Part shown: positions 1-6,288 of the stretch, piece after piece
How positions within the stretch are numbered: the stretch's first letter is position 1
Layout: each line of letters begins with the position of its first letter
Virus record (IMG/VR): IMGVR_UViG_3300011530_000017
Coordinates: 1 to 6,288 of that record
Source: a virus
Taxonomy: Duplodnaviria; Heunggongvirae; Uroviricota; Caudoviricetes
Length of the DNA: 6,288 nt
Reading direction: 5' to 3' (one strand)
Made by a program: the position numbers and the translations under genes
Notes under the pieces: generated by a model
Seen by the model: only the letters and a program-made list of their open reading frames with translations
Told to the model about the DNA's origin: nothing
The model's database searches: none

Positions 1-2112
1 TCAGTTGAGCTTAGCTGCAATCGACAGCTGCATTGGGCTATCTGAATTTTGAAGTCTTACTACAAATACCAATGATGAAGTTGTGCTTTCTGTAGCAACA
101 TAATTCACAGACGCCAGTCTTGGATATACTGAGCTTCCGTTATATGCATCAATGCTGAGGTATGGATTAACTTCTCCAGCTCCGGGCACATACGGCAGGC
201 TTAAACCAGATATCGTTATCTTCTGGTCGGAGGTACTAGACGCTGAGACTGTACCGGCCCCAGATTTCACTACCATCCGGTTACCACCAGAGCTACTCGT
301 CAACTCCAACGCAGCTCTCGACCCTGCATCTGTTGCGCCGTCGAAGCCGGACACCCAGGTACCCAGTCCACCCTCGTTGAATATGCGACCTCTTAACTGA
401 CCAGCCGTTCTCCAGAATCCGCGTGCTGAGTACCCGATACGTACATCAACAGTGTGGTTGAAACCGCCGTTCACAGCCAATGCCGTGCCGATATAACCGT
501 TGCTGTCTGTCCCGAAGCAGCCACGGATACTACCTGTTAAGTGGTTGTGATCGCCTTCGATTAAGACGCCAGACCCCGGGAGGTTATCTGCAACAGTCGG
601 GCTCCGTACGTGCTGGACGTTCACGGTATTGAACTGCCCGCCGAGGTAGATAGCCCAGCTAGCATAGTCTTTATTAGTTGTCTTCTCAGACTGCAAGCTA
701 TGGATGGTTCCGAAATCACTTATCTTGCCGCTATTCGTGCTGCTTTCAATAATAATAGCGGGAGGATATGTACTCATGGCATGCAACGGGACGGGAAGAT
801 GTTGACTATTCTGATGCGCGTCGAGCCTTGACCCCAAGACGTAGCTACTTTTCCTGAACCACGCACCGATCAAGCAGCTTTCAACAATCATTTGGCCGTA
901 CTGAACTCGGATAGTAAAAATATTCGCATCAGAGCCAAATACGGCACCGTAGCCGTTGTAGTTGCCATAGCTGTGGAAGAGTTCAAGGCTCACACCTCGC
1001 CAGGCTCTGAAGTTGGCGACTCGTTCATTCGGTGCCCAGAATGAACGCACGTCATCTGTAGACACATACCCATCCCCGGCTCCAACAATTTCGATGTCTT
1101 CGAGGTAGTAGTCCTGACTCTCGCAGTGCCAGCAATCGTTGCCACAGAACTGGATACGAATCTTCCGATGCGTGCCGATATGCCCCCACCCACGATCTGG
1201 GTCAGCGGCCTGGTACAGGCTACGGTTTCCACCCCAGTTCAGCGTTACAAGGCCGACGCTTGGAACATAGATAATCTTAATGTTCTCGAGGTGCATGTTC
1301 TCACCAGCAAGCAAAAGACCACAACCAACATCCTTCGCAGGAGTCCCTGAGAATTTTGATTTATTGCCGTGGATGGTCAGATTCTTAACTCCGGAACTGA
1401 AGCAGCCTGGCACGATCTGGCTGGCACTATCCGTCTTGTACGTGAGATAACCCTGCCCCATAATCACTGCATTACCAGTCCAGTTGTCCGGCGCTTTAAT
1501 CATTGTAGTTTCGAGCGTTACACCCTCAATAACGACTCGCGGTTTCAGCAGCAGATTAGCAGCACGGTACGTTTTAGCCCTGAGCTTAACAATGCCGCCA
1601 CCTTGTGCGTAGACGTAATCAATAGCCGTCTGTATTGCCGCTGTGTCATTGCTAACGCCGTCCCCCTTAGCATTGAACTGCTCAGCCGTGACATTTACAA
1701 GGGCATCCTTTAGAGTGCCATTTGGTGATACACCGACGAGTGAGCCATCTCCATTCTGAAGAACATATTTAAACTGGTCAGGCTCATACTTCAGTACATT
1801 TGGGAAATAAAATTCCTGCGATCCATATGCGTCAAACACAGCCATGCTGTGACCCTGCTCGGTCACAACCTTAACAATTTGCCCGCCATAAACTGGAAAC
1901 CCGGCAGCATTGATAATTAGCGGCTGCGGTATCTGAACAAGCGAGCCATCTTCATTTTCAATGTAAACCGGGATTTGGTTGGCCGGAATTGTTGGGTCTT
2001 TGTCTATCTTTCCGATGTAAATACGCCCGTTAGCGAGCGCTTTAAAAGAACGCGATGCAGTGAAAAGTTGGGACGGCATCCCGACTACGACATTAGCTGT
2101 GATATCTGACAT
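1..2112 (-). CDS. Tailspike protein (703 aa): P22-type head-binding N-terminal domain plus right-handed beta-helix receptor-binding/depolymerase module
   Basis: Start ATG at 2110..2112 (revcomp of cat), GGAG at 2120..2123 seven nt upstream, stop TGA at 1..3. The protein begins [40 protein letters not shown]...[13 protein letters not shown]...[28 protein letters not shown], closely resembling the P22 gp9 head-binding domain ([34 protein letters not shown]..., recalled from memory). From about residue 146 the motif [22 protein letters not shown] is the signature seen at the start of pectate-lyase-like beta-helix tailspikes. The ORF-track start at 2160 adds 16 residues ([16 protein letters not shown]) with no RBS and is rejected. 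Confidence 0.9.
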
Positions 2113-2219
2113 TTCATTGCTCCAGACGAATGATATGATGCAACCATGATGTGATTGCATACCGAAATGGTACTATTGAGTATTTATCCAGTAGGTTACG
2201 ATGCCATTCCACCCAACTG
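2113..2219. promoter_or_regulatory. Divergent intergenic region between tailspike and mnt-like gene: tailspike RBS, short inverted and direct repeats, possible promoter/operator
   Basis: Tailspike GGAG at 2120..2123. Inverted repeat ATGCAA (2138..2143) / TTGCAT (2155..2160) with an 11-nt spacer. ATGATG occurs at 2135..2140 and 2146..2151, 11 bp apart. On the minus strand TGGATAAAT (plus 2182..2190) is a weak extended -10-like candidate. No confident promoter can be assigned, and the region is cut short by the N-run. Confidence 0.3.
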
Positions 2220-2229
2220 NNNNNNNNNN
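2220..2229. other. Run of 10 N: assembly or sequencing gap of unknown true length
   Basis: Ten consecutive n characters in the sequence, falling inside or just upstream of the 5' end of the mnt-like gene. Confidence 0.95.
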
Positions 2230-2445
2230 CTCCACGCGAAAATTAAGCAGCGTGCGAAGATGAATAACAGGTCGCTGAACTCAGAGATAATTGCAGCGAT
2301 TGAAGAATCATTGGCTAAACAAAGCTCTGCATCTGTTTACATTGACGATGCAGATCGTATGGCAGAACAACAATCTGAGATTGTTAAGAAAATTGTCTTT
2401 GATACGCTTAAGACCATGTATAGCAATAATAAAAAGGAAACATAG
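2230..2445 (+). CDS. mnt: Mnt-like ribbon-helix-helix repressor, 5' end obscured by the gap (resolvable part 71 aa plus stop)
   Basis: The translation after the gap, LHAKIKQRAKMNNRSLNSEIIAAIEESLAKQSSASVYIDDADRMAEQQSEIVKKIVFDTLKTMYSNNKKET, parallels P22 Mnt (...REKLKFRAEANGRSMNSELLQIVQDALSKPSPVTGYRNDAERLADEQSELVKKMVFDTLKDLYKKTT, recalled from memory). Stop TAG at 2443..2445. The expected N-terminal beta-strand of the RHH fold is missing, so the true start lies in or beyond the N-run. The track's start at 2155 ([21 protein letters not shown]) does not look like Mnt and depends on the gap being exactly 10 nt. Confidence 0.8.
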   Translation, partial: LHAKIKQRAKMNNRSLNSEIIAAIEESLAKQSSASVYIDDADRMAEQQSEIVKKIVFDTLKTMYSNNKKET

Positions 2446-2515
2446 AAATCTAGTTTCCGGCTAAAATGGCATTGCCTTCATGATATCCTGTGAAAAACTA
2501 AGGAGAGTTAACCAT

Positions 2516-3001
2516 ATGAAAAAATCACTGTTAATTATCCCGCTTCTGCTGGTTGGATGCGCAAAAGTAAGTGACTATCAAGCAAGTTGCGAACAACGCT
2601 ATCAAAAGCTTAGCGATATGGCTAATTGCCTTGATGCCAGTGTGAAGAACGACTCACGCATGGCATCAGCACCAACACCTAAGCTGTATGTCCTTGCTGC
2701 AAAGATGCTCGGGCAAGGTGTCGATGAAGGCAAGATAAGTGACGCACAGGCAAGACTTGAGCTTCAGAATCTTTATGTTCAATTACAAAGCCAAGAACAA
2801 GCCCAACAAATAGCACAAAGCCAAGCATTCCAGCAGGCTTTATTGAATTATCAGGCTGTAAACACAATGCAAGCGATCGAGCAAAAAGCGCGCCAGCCTG
2901 TTATAACTCAACCTTACCCAACACGCGTTGACACATATACAAACTGCAATTCAGGATTTGGAAACACGGTAACATGCAACAGTAGCAGTAACATCAGATA
3001 A
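2516..3001 (+). CDS. Lipoprotein of unknown function (161 aa precursor), candidate superinfection-exclusion or lysogenic-conversion moron
   Basis: ATG at 2516..2518 preceded by AGGAG at 2501..2505 (10-nt spacing), stop TAA at 2999..3001. N-terminus MKKSLLIIPLLLVGC has a basic n-region, a hydrophobic core and lipobox L-V-G-C with Cys15. Residue +2 after the Cys is Ala, not Asp, which by the Lol sorting rule predicts outer-membrane targeting. The mature ~146-aa protein has a Gln-rich helical stretch (QNLYVQLQSQEQAQQIAQSQAFQQALLNYQAVNTMQAIEQ) and four further Cys (SCEQ, ANCLD, TNCNS, VTCNS) that could form two disulfides. The track's start at 2480 adds 12 residues with no RBS and is rejected. 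I do not recognise this protein as Bor, Cor, Llp, a spanin or SieA. Confidence 0.8.
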   Translation: MKKSLLIIPLLLVGCAKVSDYQASCEQRYQKLSDMANCLDASVKNDSRMASAPTPKLYVLAAKMLGQGVDEGKISDAQARLELQNLYVQLQSQEQAQQIAQSQAFQQALLNYQAVNTMQAIEQKARQPVITQPYPTRVDTYTNCNSGFGNTVTCNSSSNIR

Positions 3002-3091
3002 CAATCAGCAAAGATATCGCCTATGCAGAGGGATACGATAAACCTCGCGTTCTACATATTTGGTTTTTGCACGTTCCTGGTGTTTGAAAGG

Positions 3092-5089
3092 CTATTCTGA
3101 CAACGAATCAGACTTCGCACCCTGCGTCAGTGCATTAATCGCTTTTTGCGCTTGCTGCATGGCTTTCTCAAACGCTGTCGATCCGCGTGGGGTGTTTGCC
3201 ATTCGGAGCATTGCATTTCTGAATGGCTCGCTCTCATAGGCGCGAGTAAGAAGTCCGTAGCTTACTGCTGCGCCAGTTGTCGCCGGGTTCATTGCCGTCC
3301 CATACCCAATAATGAACGGGATAGTTTGCTGCCCTGTGGGTGTTGTTACTGCCGCTTTTGCAGCCTGCTGCGTGGATTGCAGGTAGTTTTTTAATCCTTT
3401 CAGATAAGCAGCGTCCTGCCCCTTAAATGTGATGCCAGTCTGGTTTTGCAGGATATTAAGCTGCCGAAGGAACTGGTCAGGGGATCCGCCAGATTTCTCC
3501 ATCGCCTTTCCAATGATGCCATTGCGCATTTGCGCCCTGCCAACACGACCAACTGAGTTATACAGCGTCTTAATTTCCGATTTGTTCTTGCTGAATAGCA
3601 TGTTGTTGACAACTTCCGGCGTCAGGTCGCCTTTCATGAGAACATTCTTCAGCCTGGTATTCTTTAGTTTCGCTGCTTCGTCAGCGTAGACGGCATTGGC
3701 CTGCTGATATTTACGGAGAGTATCGTTGCCAAGATTCTGACCAATGGCACCATTGATATCGTCGGTCATTGCCTTGTAAACTCGCTGAATGGCAGCATCG
3801 GAACGGTTTGGTAACACTGGCCGCTCACCCTTCACGTCCATTCTGAACTGGCTGCGCAGATCGCTTAATTGCTTCAAATCCAGATTTACCGGACCATCAG
3901 GACCAGCATTGCGAACAAGCTCATCACGATAGGACTGAAGTTTTGAAATAGTCTCGTTATCGGCGACCTTACCAAGCTTCTGCAGGTTAGATATTTCTGT
4001 ATCAATCTGCTGAATTGCTCGCGCAGGCTGAATGTTTACTCCAGCCCTAGCATTCTGAACCTGCTCCAGTCGATTACCGGCGGCACGACGAATTCCTGAT
4101 GTTTTCGCTTTAAGGCTGTCAATAACAACCGCTGGATCATACTCACCGAATTTATCAGCAAATCTCTGCACCAACTGGCTTCTCGCTTCCTGTTGCGTTG
4201 CTCTCATTCCGCTTGTGCCAGCCAGAGGGATATTTTCTGCTGTAGTCTGCGCCATTTTTCCGACGCGGGAAGTTGGTTGTAACAGGTCTGTGGTGTACAG
4301 AGGAACTCCTTCACGCTCTGCAAATCTGATAGCCTGCTGCGCTTCTGGCGCGATAGCACCACGAACGCCACGATAAGCAGCACCTAATCCACGTCCGGCA
4401 GCGTTAATAGCACCGCCAGTAAGTACACCAACGCCTAAATCGGTGGCGAGTGCTTCCGCATCATCTTTCGCACTATTTGCAGCAAGTGATCCAACTGCGT
4501 TTTCTGCGAGAAGTCGTGTTGCCCCCTGAGCAATTCGACCAGCAAGTGTTGGTGCCTGTGCCGCCGCTCTCTCAACGCCAGCAGGAGTGAGGTAAGGCAA
4601 TGCTTCAGCAAATACCCTTCCCTCTGTCGTTTGTGGAGTCAGCGCGCCTTGCTGAAGGCCAAAGTCCTGCTCTAATCCCTGCGTTGTTACTCGTGGCGCT
4701 GGTTGATATGTACCATCGCCAATACCGAGTTTACCGCCAGCCCATGCTGCCGCGCTTGTTACAGCATCGGCAACTGATGCAGGTATGTTTGCCACGTTCA
4801 CGCCAGCCTGCACCAGTCCGCGACCAGTCTCTTTTACTGCTTCGCCAAGATCAGACATAAATCCACTTTGCTGTGGTTGTTGCTGTGCTACTGGTTGTTG
4901 TGTCTCCACTGGCTGCACAGATGGCAATGGATAGGCAGCATAGAAAGCTTGCTTAGCCTGCTCTGCATTTTCTCCGGCTTGCGGGGCCACGACTTCATTG
5001 AAGTATTGCTCCTGAGCCAGCGCTTTTTGTTCTGGTGCTAACGCCTGATACTGTGGAGAGGCGATAACATCTTTCCATGCTTTAGCCAT
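3092..5089 (-). CDS. Ejection (DNA transfer / E) protein, gp16-like by position (665 aa)
   Basis: ATG at 5087..5089 with GGGGTGA upstream on the minus strand, stop TAG at 3092..3094. This is the last long ORF of the late operon immediately before the immI-like/tailspike region, the slot of P22 gene 16. The sequence has Gln/Ala/Gly-rich low-complexity stretches and no recognisable enzymatic motif. The call rests on synteny and composition, not on a remembered alignment. Confidence 0.75.
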   Translation of the reverse strand: MAKAWKDVIASPQYQALAPEQKALAQEQYFNEVVAPQAGENAEQAKQAFYAAYPLPSVQPVETQQPVAQQQPQQSGFMSDLGEAVKETGRGLVQAGVNVANIPASVADAVTSAAAWAGGKLGIGDGTYQPAPRVTTQGLEQDFGLQQGALTPQTTEGRVFAEALPYLTPAGVERAAAQAPTLAGRIAQGATRLLAENAVGSLAANSAKDDAEALATDLGVGVLTGGAINAAGRGLGAAYRGVRGAIAPEAQQAIRFAEREGVPLYTTDLLQPTSRVGKMAQTTAENIPLAGTSGMRATQQEARSQLVQRFADKFGEYDPAVVIDSLKAKTSGIRRAAGNRLEQVQNARAGVNIQPARAIQQIDTEISNLQKLGKVADNETISKLQSYRDELVRNAGPDGPVNLDLKQLSDLRSQFRMDVKGERPVLPNRSDAAIQRVYKAMTDDINGAIGQNLGNDTLRKYQQANAVYADEAAKLKNTRLKNVLMKGDLTPEVVNNMLFSKNKSEIKTLYNSVGRVGRAQMRNGIIGKAMEKSGGSPDQFLRQLNILQNQTGITFKGQDAAYLKGLKNYLQSTQQAAKAAVTTPTGQQTIPFIIGYGTAMNPATTGAAVSYGLLTRAYESEPFRNAMLRMANTPRGSTAFEKAMQQAQKAINALTQGAKSDSLSE

Positions 5090-6288
5090 TAATCACCCCA
5101 TAGTGAAGAAAAGTTACTGCTGGCTGCTGGCTGTGATACCTGTGCAGGTTGAGATTGCTGCCGCTGAGATTTACCAACATTAACGTTATATTGTTGGTTG
5201 TAATTGTTGGTGTATTCCTGAATCTCACGAATCGACTGCTGCATAGCCTCTGGGCTTGAATAGTCAACCTGCGGCATCCCCTGAAAATACATCTTCGCTT
5301 CTGCAACGGTGTTAATACCACTGGCACCCATGTCCCTTGCTGCCGCCACACCCTGATTCTGCATTCTGCCCTGAATACGTTGTGCTGAGTTATATAACTG
5401 GCGCTGCTCTTTTCCTGTTAATCGGCTGCGAACATCAGCACCAATTGCTGGATTACCTGCACCGCCTGTCATTCCTGTCATGAAATCGAGAGCAGAAGCG
5501 TCTGCATTTGCGATCGCGTCGATATCCTTCTTCATGGCATAGTTTTGTGCTGATGCAGACGATGTTGCAGGCGCTGCGATTGAACTGGCAGGAACGCGAA
5601 CCATATTCCCCTCGTTGTCGATGCCTTCGTAGAACGCATTAGCCCCAGCGCCGTGAAGCTTACCGCCTACCGTTACAGTTCTGCCATCTGATAACTGAAC
5701 TGTACGCTCATCATTCACAGCGATTCCTCTTGTTGACGCTCGCTGCATTGCCAAATCCTGACCTCGCCGCGCAGTAAAAGCAGATAAGTCCTGACCGCGC
5801 ATCGTGATGTTCTGACCTAGTGCTGTTAGCGCCTCGCCAGCCTGATTGCTGCGGATTGTCTCTGCAAGTTTTCCGCGGTCAATCTCACGACCAACGATTC
5901 TGTCTTGTGCCTGAAAATATTGTTCTGGACCAAGCGCATGCATTCCGATGAGATCGGCATACTGGCTGAACTGCTGAGGATTCTGCTGATACGCCTGCAC
6001 CACAGCTTCTGGCGTCAAGCCTAACTGCTGTAATGCTCCGGCATGTTTCTGAGCGGCAACCTGCACCGCCTGCGGGCCCGTTATGGCTGCCAGCTGAAGA
6101 TCACTGGCGGCATTACCAATCTGCTTATTTTTTTCAGCATCAATGAAGCCCAATCCCTGCTGAATAGCCTGAATCTGGTCAGGGTTGCTGGCCGCCAGTT
6201 GCTTTAATGCTTCCCGGTCACCAGATGCATAGGCCTGGCCGAAAGCCTGCTGAAATTGCTGTTGCTTGTCGTTATTCTGGATTTGCGA
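5089..6288 (-). CDS. Ejection protein, gp20-like by position (partial: 5' end lies beyond the right edge of the window)
   Basis: Stop TAA at 5089..5091 overlaps the downstream ATG as TAATG. The reading frame stays open from 6288 down to the stop (hand translation of 6154..6288 shows no stop: ...[55 protein letters not shown]...). The track's start at 6153 is a TTG inside this open frame and is rejected as the true start. Gln-rich C-terminus ([17 protein letters not shown]). Confidence 0.75.

Follow-up and report, generated by a model that had tools for sequence, protein, structure and literature searches.

A predicted outer-membrane lipoprotein in the sieA slot of P22-like prophages, a candidate periplasmic exclusion protein

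What does a P22-like prophage keep between its mnt-like repressor gene and its last ejection-protein gene, the interval that holds sieA in P22? The question is raised by a 6,288-nucleotide stretch of tailed-phage DNA (Caudoviricetes; positions 1 to 6,288 of IMG/VR record IMGVR_UViG_3300011530_000017), which we analysed at its full length and call the window. A lipoprotein gene (2516..3001, + strand; 161 codons plus stop) lies in this interval, on the strand opposite to the late operon. A first-pass annotation, made from the sequence alone, had proposed a prophage-expressed surface lipoprotein that excludes superinfecting phage or alters the cell envelope. We found that the product is very probably a lysogen-expressed accessory protein that faces the periplasm. 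We favor superinfection exclusion as its function, with a probability of roughly 0.4, by analogy drawn from position, expression and compartment. The lipoprotein probably joins a familiar kind of prophage product, envelope proteins with an exclusion or accessory role, and makes a good, easily tested candidate for experiments rather than a surprise. New here are the transcription in a lysogen and the rise in macrophages noted for an orthologue, the wide and unnamed family of the protein, and family members that lack the anchor and sit in the equivalent slot.

The gene is real and under purifying selection. Compared with its orthologue in Gally, a prophage of Escherichia coli LF82, dN/dS is 0.047 (dN 0.011, dS 0.226). 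Because of this low ratio, the 94 close homologues and the transcription of the orthologue, a chance open reading frame (ORF) is excluded, and we rejected that reading. The ORF listing had automatically placed the start at an in-frame ATG at 2480, 5' of 2516. We rejected the 173-residue form that begins there and placed the start at 2516, because the Shine-Dalgarno sequence AAGGAG (2500..2505, +, read from the sequence) lies 10 nt before the ATG at 2516, the equivalent Met-Lys-Lys is the start in all homologues of the alignment, and the PGAP/RefSeq form (WP_000749291.1) has 161 residues. Gally carries an identical ATAAGGAGAGTTAATCATATG at the ribosome-binding-site region. The 161-residue ORF with a strong ribosome-binding site thus stands as first described.

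The N-terminus of the product, MKKSLLIIPLLLVGC, is that of a lipoprotein. Codons 1-15 (2516..2560, +; sequence and alignment) specify a type II signal peptide that ends in the canonical lipobox L-V-G-C at residues 12-15, with Ala at +2. In a 70-sequence alignment Cys15 is invariant, and conservation of Gly14 is 90% or higher. A lipobox of the pattern [LVI][ASTVI][GAS]C is present in all close homologues with a complete N-terminus (83/83), and their +2 residue is Ala in 77, Val in 4 and Thr in 2. Asp at +2 was found in none of these 83 and in none across the wider family. The sequence therefore agrees with the Lol rule of Enterobacterales, by which a +2 residue other than Asp goes with sorting to the outer membrane. 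The cysteines are at residues 15, 25, 38, 144 and 154, and residues 84-127 form a Gln-rich stretch (15 Gln in 44 residues). The lipoprotein signal with Ala at +2, the Gln-rich core and the four extra cysteines had all been read correctly in the first pass.

We found that the gene occupies the slot of P22 sieA. The co-oriented gene 70 bp upstream encodes an mnt/Arc-like repressor (3' part at 2230..2445, +; PF11423 Repressor_Mnt, 1.5e-11; PF03869 Arc, 1.7e-08). On the other side is a convergent gp16-like DNA-transfer (ejection) gene (3092..5089, -; phrog_770, 1.3e-235), which is 96% identical in nucleotide sequence to Sf6 gene 13. These matches bear out the neighbors and the anti-late strand given in the first-pass annotation. 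In the equivalent interval and orientation P22 has mnt, orf59a, the mnt terminator, and sieA with its own promoter, so the proposed equivalence to the sieA position also holds. Sf6 has nothing in the slot between mnt/tailspike and gp16. By blastn breakpoints, homology to Gally begins at 2499, at the ribosome-binding site, and this is the left edge of the cassette; a short 3' tail (3002..3020, +) follows the ORF, and homology to Sf6 resumes at 3021. The cassette, made up of the ribosome-binding site, the ORF and about 20 bp, is a compact moron-type accessory unit of P22-like temperate phages. The gp16-like gene lies outside it and belongs to the candidate target class. As expected of a moron, the cassette is missing from Sf6 despite 96% identical flanks, is variably present, and has an orthologue transcribed in a lysogen, with the caveat that the cassette itself has no recognizable promoter or terminator and that the orthologue narrowly missed the 5-fold cutoff of the LF82 study.

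This position is kept across the close family. In all seven loci with flanking sequence (7/7) the gene sits between mnt/tailspike and gp16/gp20. These loci are from E. coli, Gally, Proteus phage Brookers, Providencia, two Tatumella and one metagenome-assembled genome (five genera plus a metagenome bin). The gap from the preceding co-oriented gene is 14-70 bp, and in several phages, where this gene is mnt, the gap measures 17-70 bp.

The slot appears to hold either this gene or sieA. P22-type SieA is encoded in 41 phage records, and none of these is among the five records that carry the lipoprotein. The SieA motif is absent from all lipoprotein loci examined, and tblastn with P22 SieA gave no match there. 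The lipoprotein gene and sieA were never found together in the sample examined, each phage having one or the other. Only 22 of 66 P22-like phages have sieA (PMC10883804), so the others hold something else in the slot.

The gene is common among E. coli prophages. Of 5,426 complete E. coli genomes, 186 have the ORF, in each case chromosomal, and the carriers include O104:H4, LF82 and an O25b:H4-ST131 strain. Conserved gp7/gp14, our marker for a P22-like prophage, were fully present in 815 E. coli genomes; by this comparison (186 vs 815 genomes) the lipoprotein gene is present in approximately one in five P22-like prophages of E. coli. Among 50,697 phage records, five have it, all Lederbergvirus (Gally, vB_EcoP-720R6, VSe13, MS2 LVA and Proteus phage Brookers). 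The 94 close homologues are 46-99% identical and are spread across Enterobacterales, including plant- and insect-associated genera (Tatumella, Pectobacterium).

The protein had been said to match no nameable family. This is true of Pfam and NCBIfam, in which profile scans found no match, of PADLOC, and of the Protein Data Bank (PDB), where a sequence-profile search gave nothing below E 0.8. The statement fails for PHROG, in which the protein is a member of phrog_6067 (function unknown; E 1.6e-110, residues 1-161 against profile positions 1-161), and in part for the sequence databases, which call it 'hypothetical protein' or, in some RefSeq records, 'lipoprotein'. The better sub-threshold matches (GspK, TraV, RcsF, 'T6SS immunity lipoprotein') cover the signal-peptide region or a low-complexity stretch. 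A literature search by protein identifiers found no paper on the lipoprotein.

We found that the orthologue is transcribed in a lysogen. We used published RNA-seq of E. coli LF82 (PMC9928086, S1 Table), in which the Gally gene is GALLYPH_13/LF82_138; its product is 97.5% identical to the window lipoprotein. Expression of LF82_138, as log2(fpkm+5), was 6.29 / 5.96 in LB stationary phase, 7.87 / 8.15 in condition B1 and 8.02 / 8.22 in condition B6 (both presumably DMEM), 10.29 / 10.30 after 1 h in THP1 macrophages, and 8.70 / 8.54 after 6 h (PMC9928086). The rise in macrophages relative to LB was about 16-fold, and at 6 h the log2 fold change was 2.55 (q 4.7e-27; PMC9928086). In LB, only the C2 repressor was expressed above LF82_138 in Gally; LF82_138 had 70 normalized counts compared to a prophage median of 15.6 (4.5-fold). 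Gally gp16, beside it, was constant at 3.6-4.15, and the late genes overall were at 2.3-4.1 log2(fpkm+5). The prophage expression that had been proposed is thus observed for the Gally orthologue, which is transcribed while the late genes are silent (PMC9928086).

These data bear on a lytic-cycle role, in which the product would be an o-spanin, a lysis regulator or a virion component. A small phage outer-membrane lipoprotein that adjoins virion genes would suit such a role. However, the gene is on the strand opposite to the late operon and is transcribed with the late genes silent, Gally has a separate holin/lysin/Rz cassette, and profile scans found no Rz1 or spanin match. In addition, Sf6, whose gp16 is near-identical, is viable as a phage without the gene. 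We consider a lytic role highly improbable. An o-spanin or other lysis lipoprotein was the identity that the first-pass annotation had raised against its own proposal; we found no such match, and none to Rz1, Bor, Cor or another characterized family. We rejected the o-spanin or lysis-protein identity on position, strand, transcription in the lysogen, the separate Rz in Gally and the lack of an Rz1-type match.

The rise in macrophages might also indicate a host-fitness or virulence moron, that is, a Bor/Iss-like envelope lipoprotein that helps the lysogen survive envelope stress or the macrophage vacuole and has no action on phages. The increase of the Gally orthologue from log2 ~6.1 (LB) to 10.3 (1 h in THP1) fits this explanation, as do its higher levels in B1 and B6, the presence of the gene in pathogenic lineages (O104:H4, LF82 and the O25b:H4-ST131 strain), and the chromosomal relatives outside mobile elements. 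We nevertheless regard it as rather unlikely. The protein has no similarity to Bor/Iss or to known stress or virulence lipoproteins, the induction is common to the whole Gally right arm and not specific to this gene, and a role in macrophages leaves unexplained the strict slot beside the ejection genes across Enterobacterales (Tatumella, Pectobacterium).

The window and Gally differ in how the gene might be transcribed. In Gally, an opposite-strand gene lies between mnt and LF82_138, mnt ends in a terminator-like hairpin, and upstream of the lipoprotein gene, which is predicted to have its own promoter, are two promoter-like sites. GALLYPH_14 (locus L001 of Gally, 4447-4866, -), between mnt and the Gally copy, is a second lipoprotein gene (MKRIIGVVAGAILLSGC...) with a weak PEGA-domain match, and in the LF82 RNA-seq its expression was stronger still, up to log2 11 in macrophages. 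Scans of the window found no terminator-like site between mnt and the lipoprotein gene, no convincing promoter in the 70-bp gap after mnt, and no terminator-like structure 3' of the lipoprotein gene (z 0.05). A promoter-like site (CTGACA-17-AATGAT, 2106..2134, +; consensus match only) lies in the divergent region between the tailspike gene and mnt. As a candidate Pmnt, this site might serve the lipoprotein gene as well, and read-through from Pmnt is plausible. Such sites are not more frequent than in shuffled sequence (2 found, 2.4 expected).

We found that the lipoprotein belongs, by sequence, to a broad unnamed family that is much wider than PHROG 6067. An exhaustive profile search of 1.84 billion cluster representatives gave 242 clusters at E<=1e-3 and 94 at E<=1e-10. 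Members share a signal peptide, an ~80-residue domain with invariant Gln22, Cys25, Cys38 and Ala79, a linker of variable length, and a C-terminal T-x-C...G...C hairpin. Most have a lipobox, and about six have an ordinary cleavable signal peptide instead. The distant members are mostly from metagenomes, with almost no names or taxa; among the distant relatives scanned (10-42), none had a Pfam, NCBIfam or PADLOC assignment, and matches were below threshold only.

Three of the non-lipidated relatives indicate where the protein would act. P0152, P0166 and P0134 (loci L020 7001-7414, L025 7001-7387 and L024 721-1185, respectively) are 33-37% identical to the lipoprotein over the head domain and are encoded in the tailspike/gp16 interval of other P22-like prophages. 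Each has an ordinary cleaved signal peptide and no lipobox cysteine. The equivalent slot can thus encode soluble variants, which implies the periplasm as the predicted site of action and argues against the surface picture. The earlier suggestion of surface exposure, with receptors masked from outside, does not fit these three proteins without a lipid anchor. In L025 the neighboring gp16 is 73% identical to that of the window and the slot protein only ~37%, indicating that the slot gene diverges, or is exchanged, much faster than its structural neighbors. Fast divergence of this sort is typical of conflict genes.

These three are among ten distant members of the family whose context we examined. 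In another temperate phage, the P0155 gene immediately follows one for a CI-like repressor and shares its strand. P0139 and P0109 are in integrative elements with integrase and primase genes, one of them beside a T5orf172 gene. These genes (L013 5497-6030 and L016 5037-5426) are cargo of small elements that resemble P4-like satellites.

The homology search and structure prediction that had been recommended gave, besides the family of 242 clusters, a confident model of a fold with no specific relative in the PDB or BFVD. The AlphaFold2 model, built on the broad alignment, has a mean pLDDT of 88.7. Four helices (18-28, 32-45, 47-50 and 53-70) belong to a helical head (18-96) that holds Cys25 and Cys38. 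A long helix (76-125; pLDDT 96-98 over most of its length, 91 near the C-terminal end) leaves the head through the Gln-rich segment, and a C-terminal beta-hairpin follows (138-160; pLDDT 71-79) with Cys144-Cys154. The model predicts a soluble, helical mature protein without a transmembrane helix. A Foldseek search with the better model against BFVD and the PDB found nothing at E<=0.001.

Our inference of exclusion is based on the sieA slot, the lack of co-occurrence with sieA, the lysogeny-type positions of relatives in other elements, the fast divergence and the compartment. A possible mechanism begins with the predicted export of the product and its lipidation at Cys15, after which the Lol system would deliver it to the outer membrane, into the inner leaflet. 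The disulfide-bonded helical head would be apposed to the membrane, and the ~50-residue helix would project the small disulfide-closed beta-hairpin into the periplasm. There the protein would bind or cap a component that an incoming phage deploys between the outer and cytoplasmic membranes. For P22-like phages, this target might be a virion murein hydrolase or the conduit of the ejection proteins gp7, gp20 and gp16. The head and the stalk-borne hairpin would bind the released ejection protein or murein hydrolase, and conduit assembly would halt just inside the outer membrane. The protein would then be a functional alternative to the inner-membrane SieA of other P22-like phages. The gp16/gp20 conduit crosses the periplasm, the compartment assigned to the lipoprotein, and gp16 and gp20 are where SieA escape mutations lie (PMC10883804). 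Binding through head and hairpin is a reading of the model, and we propose it tentatively, at somewhat less than even odds.

The likeness to P22 SieA is in the slot between gene 16 and mnt/tailspike, in orientation and in prophage expression (PMC10883804). In contrast, the two proteins have no sequence similarity, and the lipoprotein lacks the FxRYPxEAxxFNK motif of SieA. SieA is a polytopic inner-membrane protein, whereas the lipoprotein has a predicted outer-membrane anchor and a mature part without a transmembrane helix. Exclusion is an established phenotype of SieA; for the lipoprotein we infer it.

Other phage proteins offer parallels in compartment. Cor (of phi80, N15 and HK022) and Llp of T5 are small phage lipoproteins that protect the lysogenic or infected cell from the periplasmic side of the outer membrane, and both inactivate FhuA. 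To our knowledge, FhuA is not a receptor of P22-like phages. The window protein is likewise a small phage-encoded lipoprotein, but it is twice as long as Cor and Llp, has a different predicted architecture, and has non-lipidated relatives. Its similarity to Cor is confined to the signal peptide (phrog_1119, E 0.035, residues 1-31), and no homology to Llp was seen. T4 Spackle (Sp) is a helical, disulfide-containing protein that inhibits the tail lysozyme; the likeness here is to a small secreted periplasmic protein that, in the case of Sp, halts the incoming phage at the cell-wall stage. Lambda Bor/Iss resembles the lipoprotein as a prophage-expressed outer-membrane lipoprotein moron, but the two are not homologous. 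We rejected homology to Cor, Llp, Bor and TraT, none of which is supported by a family match. Cor is listed in PMC11436027, as are T4 Imm and Sp, the latter two as injection inhibitors.

A prophage could also carry the gene to protect its host. The lipoprotein would then provide orphan immunity to a periplasmic toxin, for example a bacteriocin or a type VI effector with amidase or lipase activity. The lipoprotein gene of a Tatumella terrea prophage directly follows a gene (L005 7604-7939, +) for a secreted homologue of Rap1a, a type VI amidase immunity protein (PF18602, E 1.1e-13), that looks like orphan immunity cargo, and this adjacency prompted the idea. However, hhalign of the lipoprotein with the Rap1a homologue gave a probability of 0.5%, its score to NF045617 was 16.5 bits compared to a cutoff of 43, and none of the four chromosomal loci examined has an effector nearby. 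We judge orphan immunity to be improbable.

The chromosomal genes suggest yet another origin, a housekeeping envelope lipoprotein that was captured and is carried as a neutral or weakly beneficial passenger with no phage role. The family does include such genes, e.g., a Pectobacterium peruviense copy (53% identical over 88 residues), and no member has an assigned function. A passenger is, however, quite improbable given the strong purifying selection (omega 0.05), a slot kept across genera and across 33-97% identity, independent expression in the lysogen, and the recurrence of the family in other mobile elements.

The P. peruviense copy (L010 8001-8411) lies between a holE-like gene and ycgN/minCDE, with no phage genes within 8 kb. 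Proteus phage Brookers has a DNA polymerase III theta-like (holE) gene beside its tailspike gene, and the P. peruviense copy may therefore be a relic of a P22-like prophage arm.

Several results weigh against superinfection exclusion. Four of the 10 distant members have no mobile-element genes within 6-8 kb, and these chromosomal neighborhoods suggest that the family may originally have served the cell envelope, with no link to phages. The LF82 authors reported no moron in Gally, LF82_138 being just under their 5-fold cutoff of 78 (PMC9928086). The mnt and tailspike genes and their neighbors in the Gally right arm are induced in macrophages along with LF82_138, and the induction could reflect a host-adaptation role or a regional effect. 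The arrangement in the window, with mnt directly upstream, is unlike that of Gally. PADLOC gave 0 families at E<=10, and no similarity in sequence or fold was found to Cor, Llp, SieA, T4 Sp/Imm or any solved structure.

The argument for exclusion can be extended to the family as a whole. The family would then make up another class of entry blockers of P22-like phages, independent of SieA, periplasmic, mostly lipid-anchored and in some cases soluble, that intercepts the ejection conduit or cell-wall penetration of incoming short-tailed phages from the outer-membrane side, has been recruited likewise by other temperate phages and satellites, and has chromosomal relatives. We regard this generalization as doubtful. 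The way in which short-tailed phages span the periplasm with a DNA conduit is understood only in part, and no characterized protein other than SieA is thought to block it. A second, unrelated blocker in this slot, acting from the outer-membrane or periplasmic side, would open a separate genetic route to ejectosome assembly, since mutants that escape it are expected to carry changes in its target. Such a blocker would account for the content of the sieA slot in about one fifth of E. coli P22-like prophages, including those of O104:H4 and the Crohn's-associated LF82, and would give a name and function to a family of >240 protein clusters. If the protein is instead a macrophage-induced fitness factor, it would be relevant to the biology of adherent-invasive E. 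coli. The lipoprotein is of value because it is prevalent, already has expression data, belongs to a broad unnamed family and may offer a second handle on ejectosome assembly.

Some of the slots hold additional small genes. In the Citrobacter-type P22-like prophage (L020 6851-6994, +), a gene for a 47-residue secreted His/Cys-rich peptide (MKKLIALALLFSFSVLSAATFAHSGGTDSNGCHTNRKTGDHHCHNRK) precedes that of the slot protein. In the Providencia prophage (L006 7519-7980, +), a 153-residue small membrane protein of unknown family accompanies the lipoprotein gene, and in the Tatumella morbirosei prophage (L007 8440-8778, +) a gene for a 112-residue small membrane protein with a weak match to DUF7442 ('phage membrane protein') lies beside it. 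Neither of these two membrane proteins has the SieA motif.

The remaining features of the window are at its ends and at a gap. A run of 10 N at 2220-2229, inside the mnt-like gene, conceals the start codon and 5' end of that gene. In E. coli ZY22049, the nearest relative, 65 nt (L003 7720-7784) that include the annotated Arc/Mnt start codon are found in place of the 10 N, and window coordinates across the gap are thus compressed. The gp20-like gene (5089-6288, -) has a frame open to the end of the window; it is truncated by the window edge, and the listed 354-residue ORF with a TTG start does not give the true N-terminus. The tailspike gene (4-2112, -) has a P22-type Head_binding domain, and its start is placed at about 2112 because this domain begins at residue 17 of the 719-residue ORF. 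The C-terminal 584 residues of the tailspike are pectate-lyase-like, with 'colanic acid degradation' as the best PHROG match, and had no tblastn match in any of the P22-like loci examined, indicating that receptor specificity differs from that of Gally, ZY22049 and Brookers.

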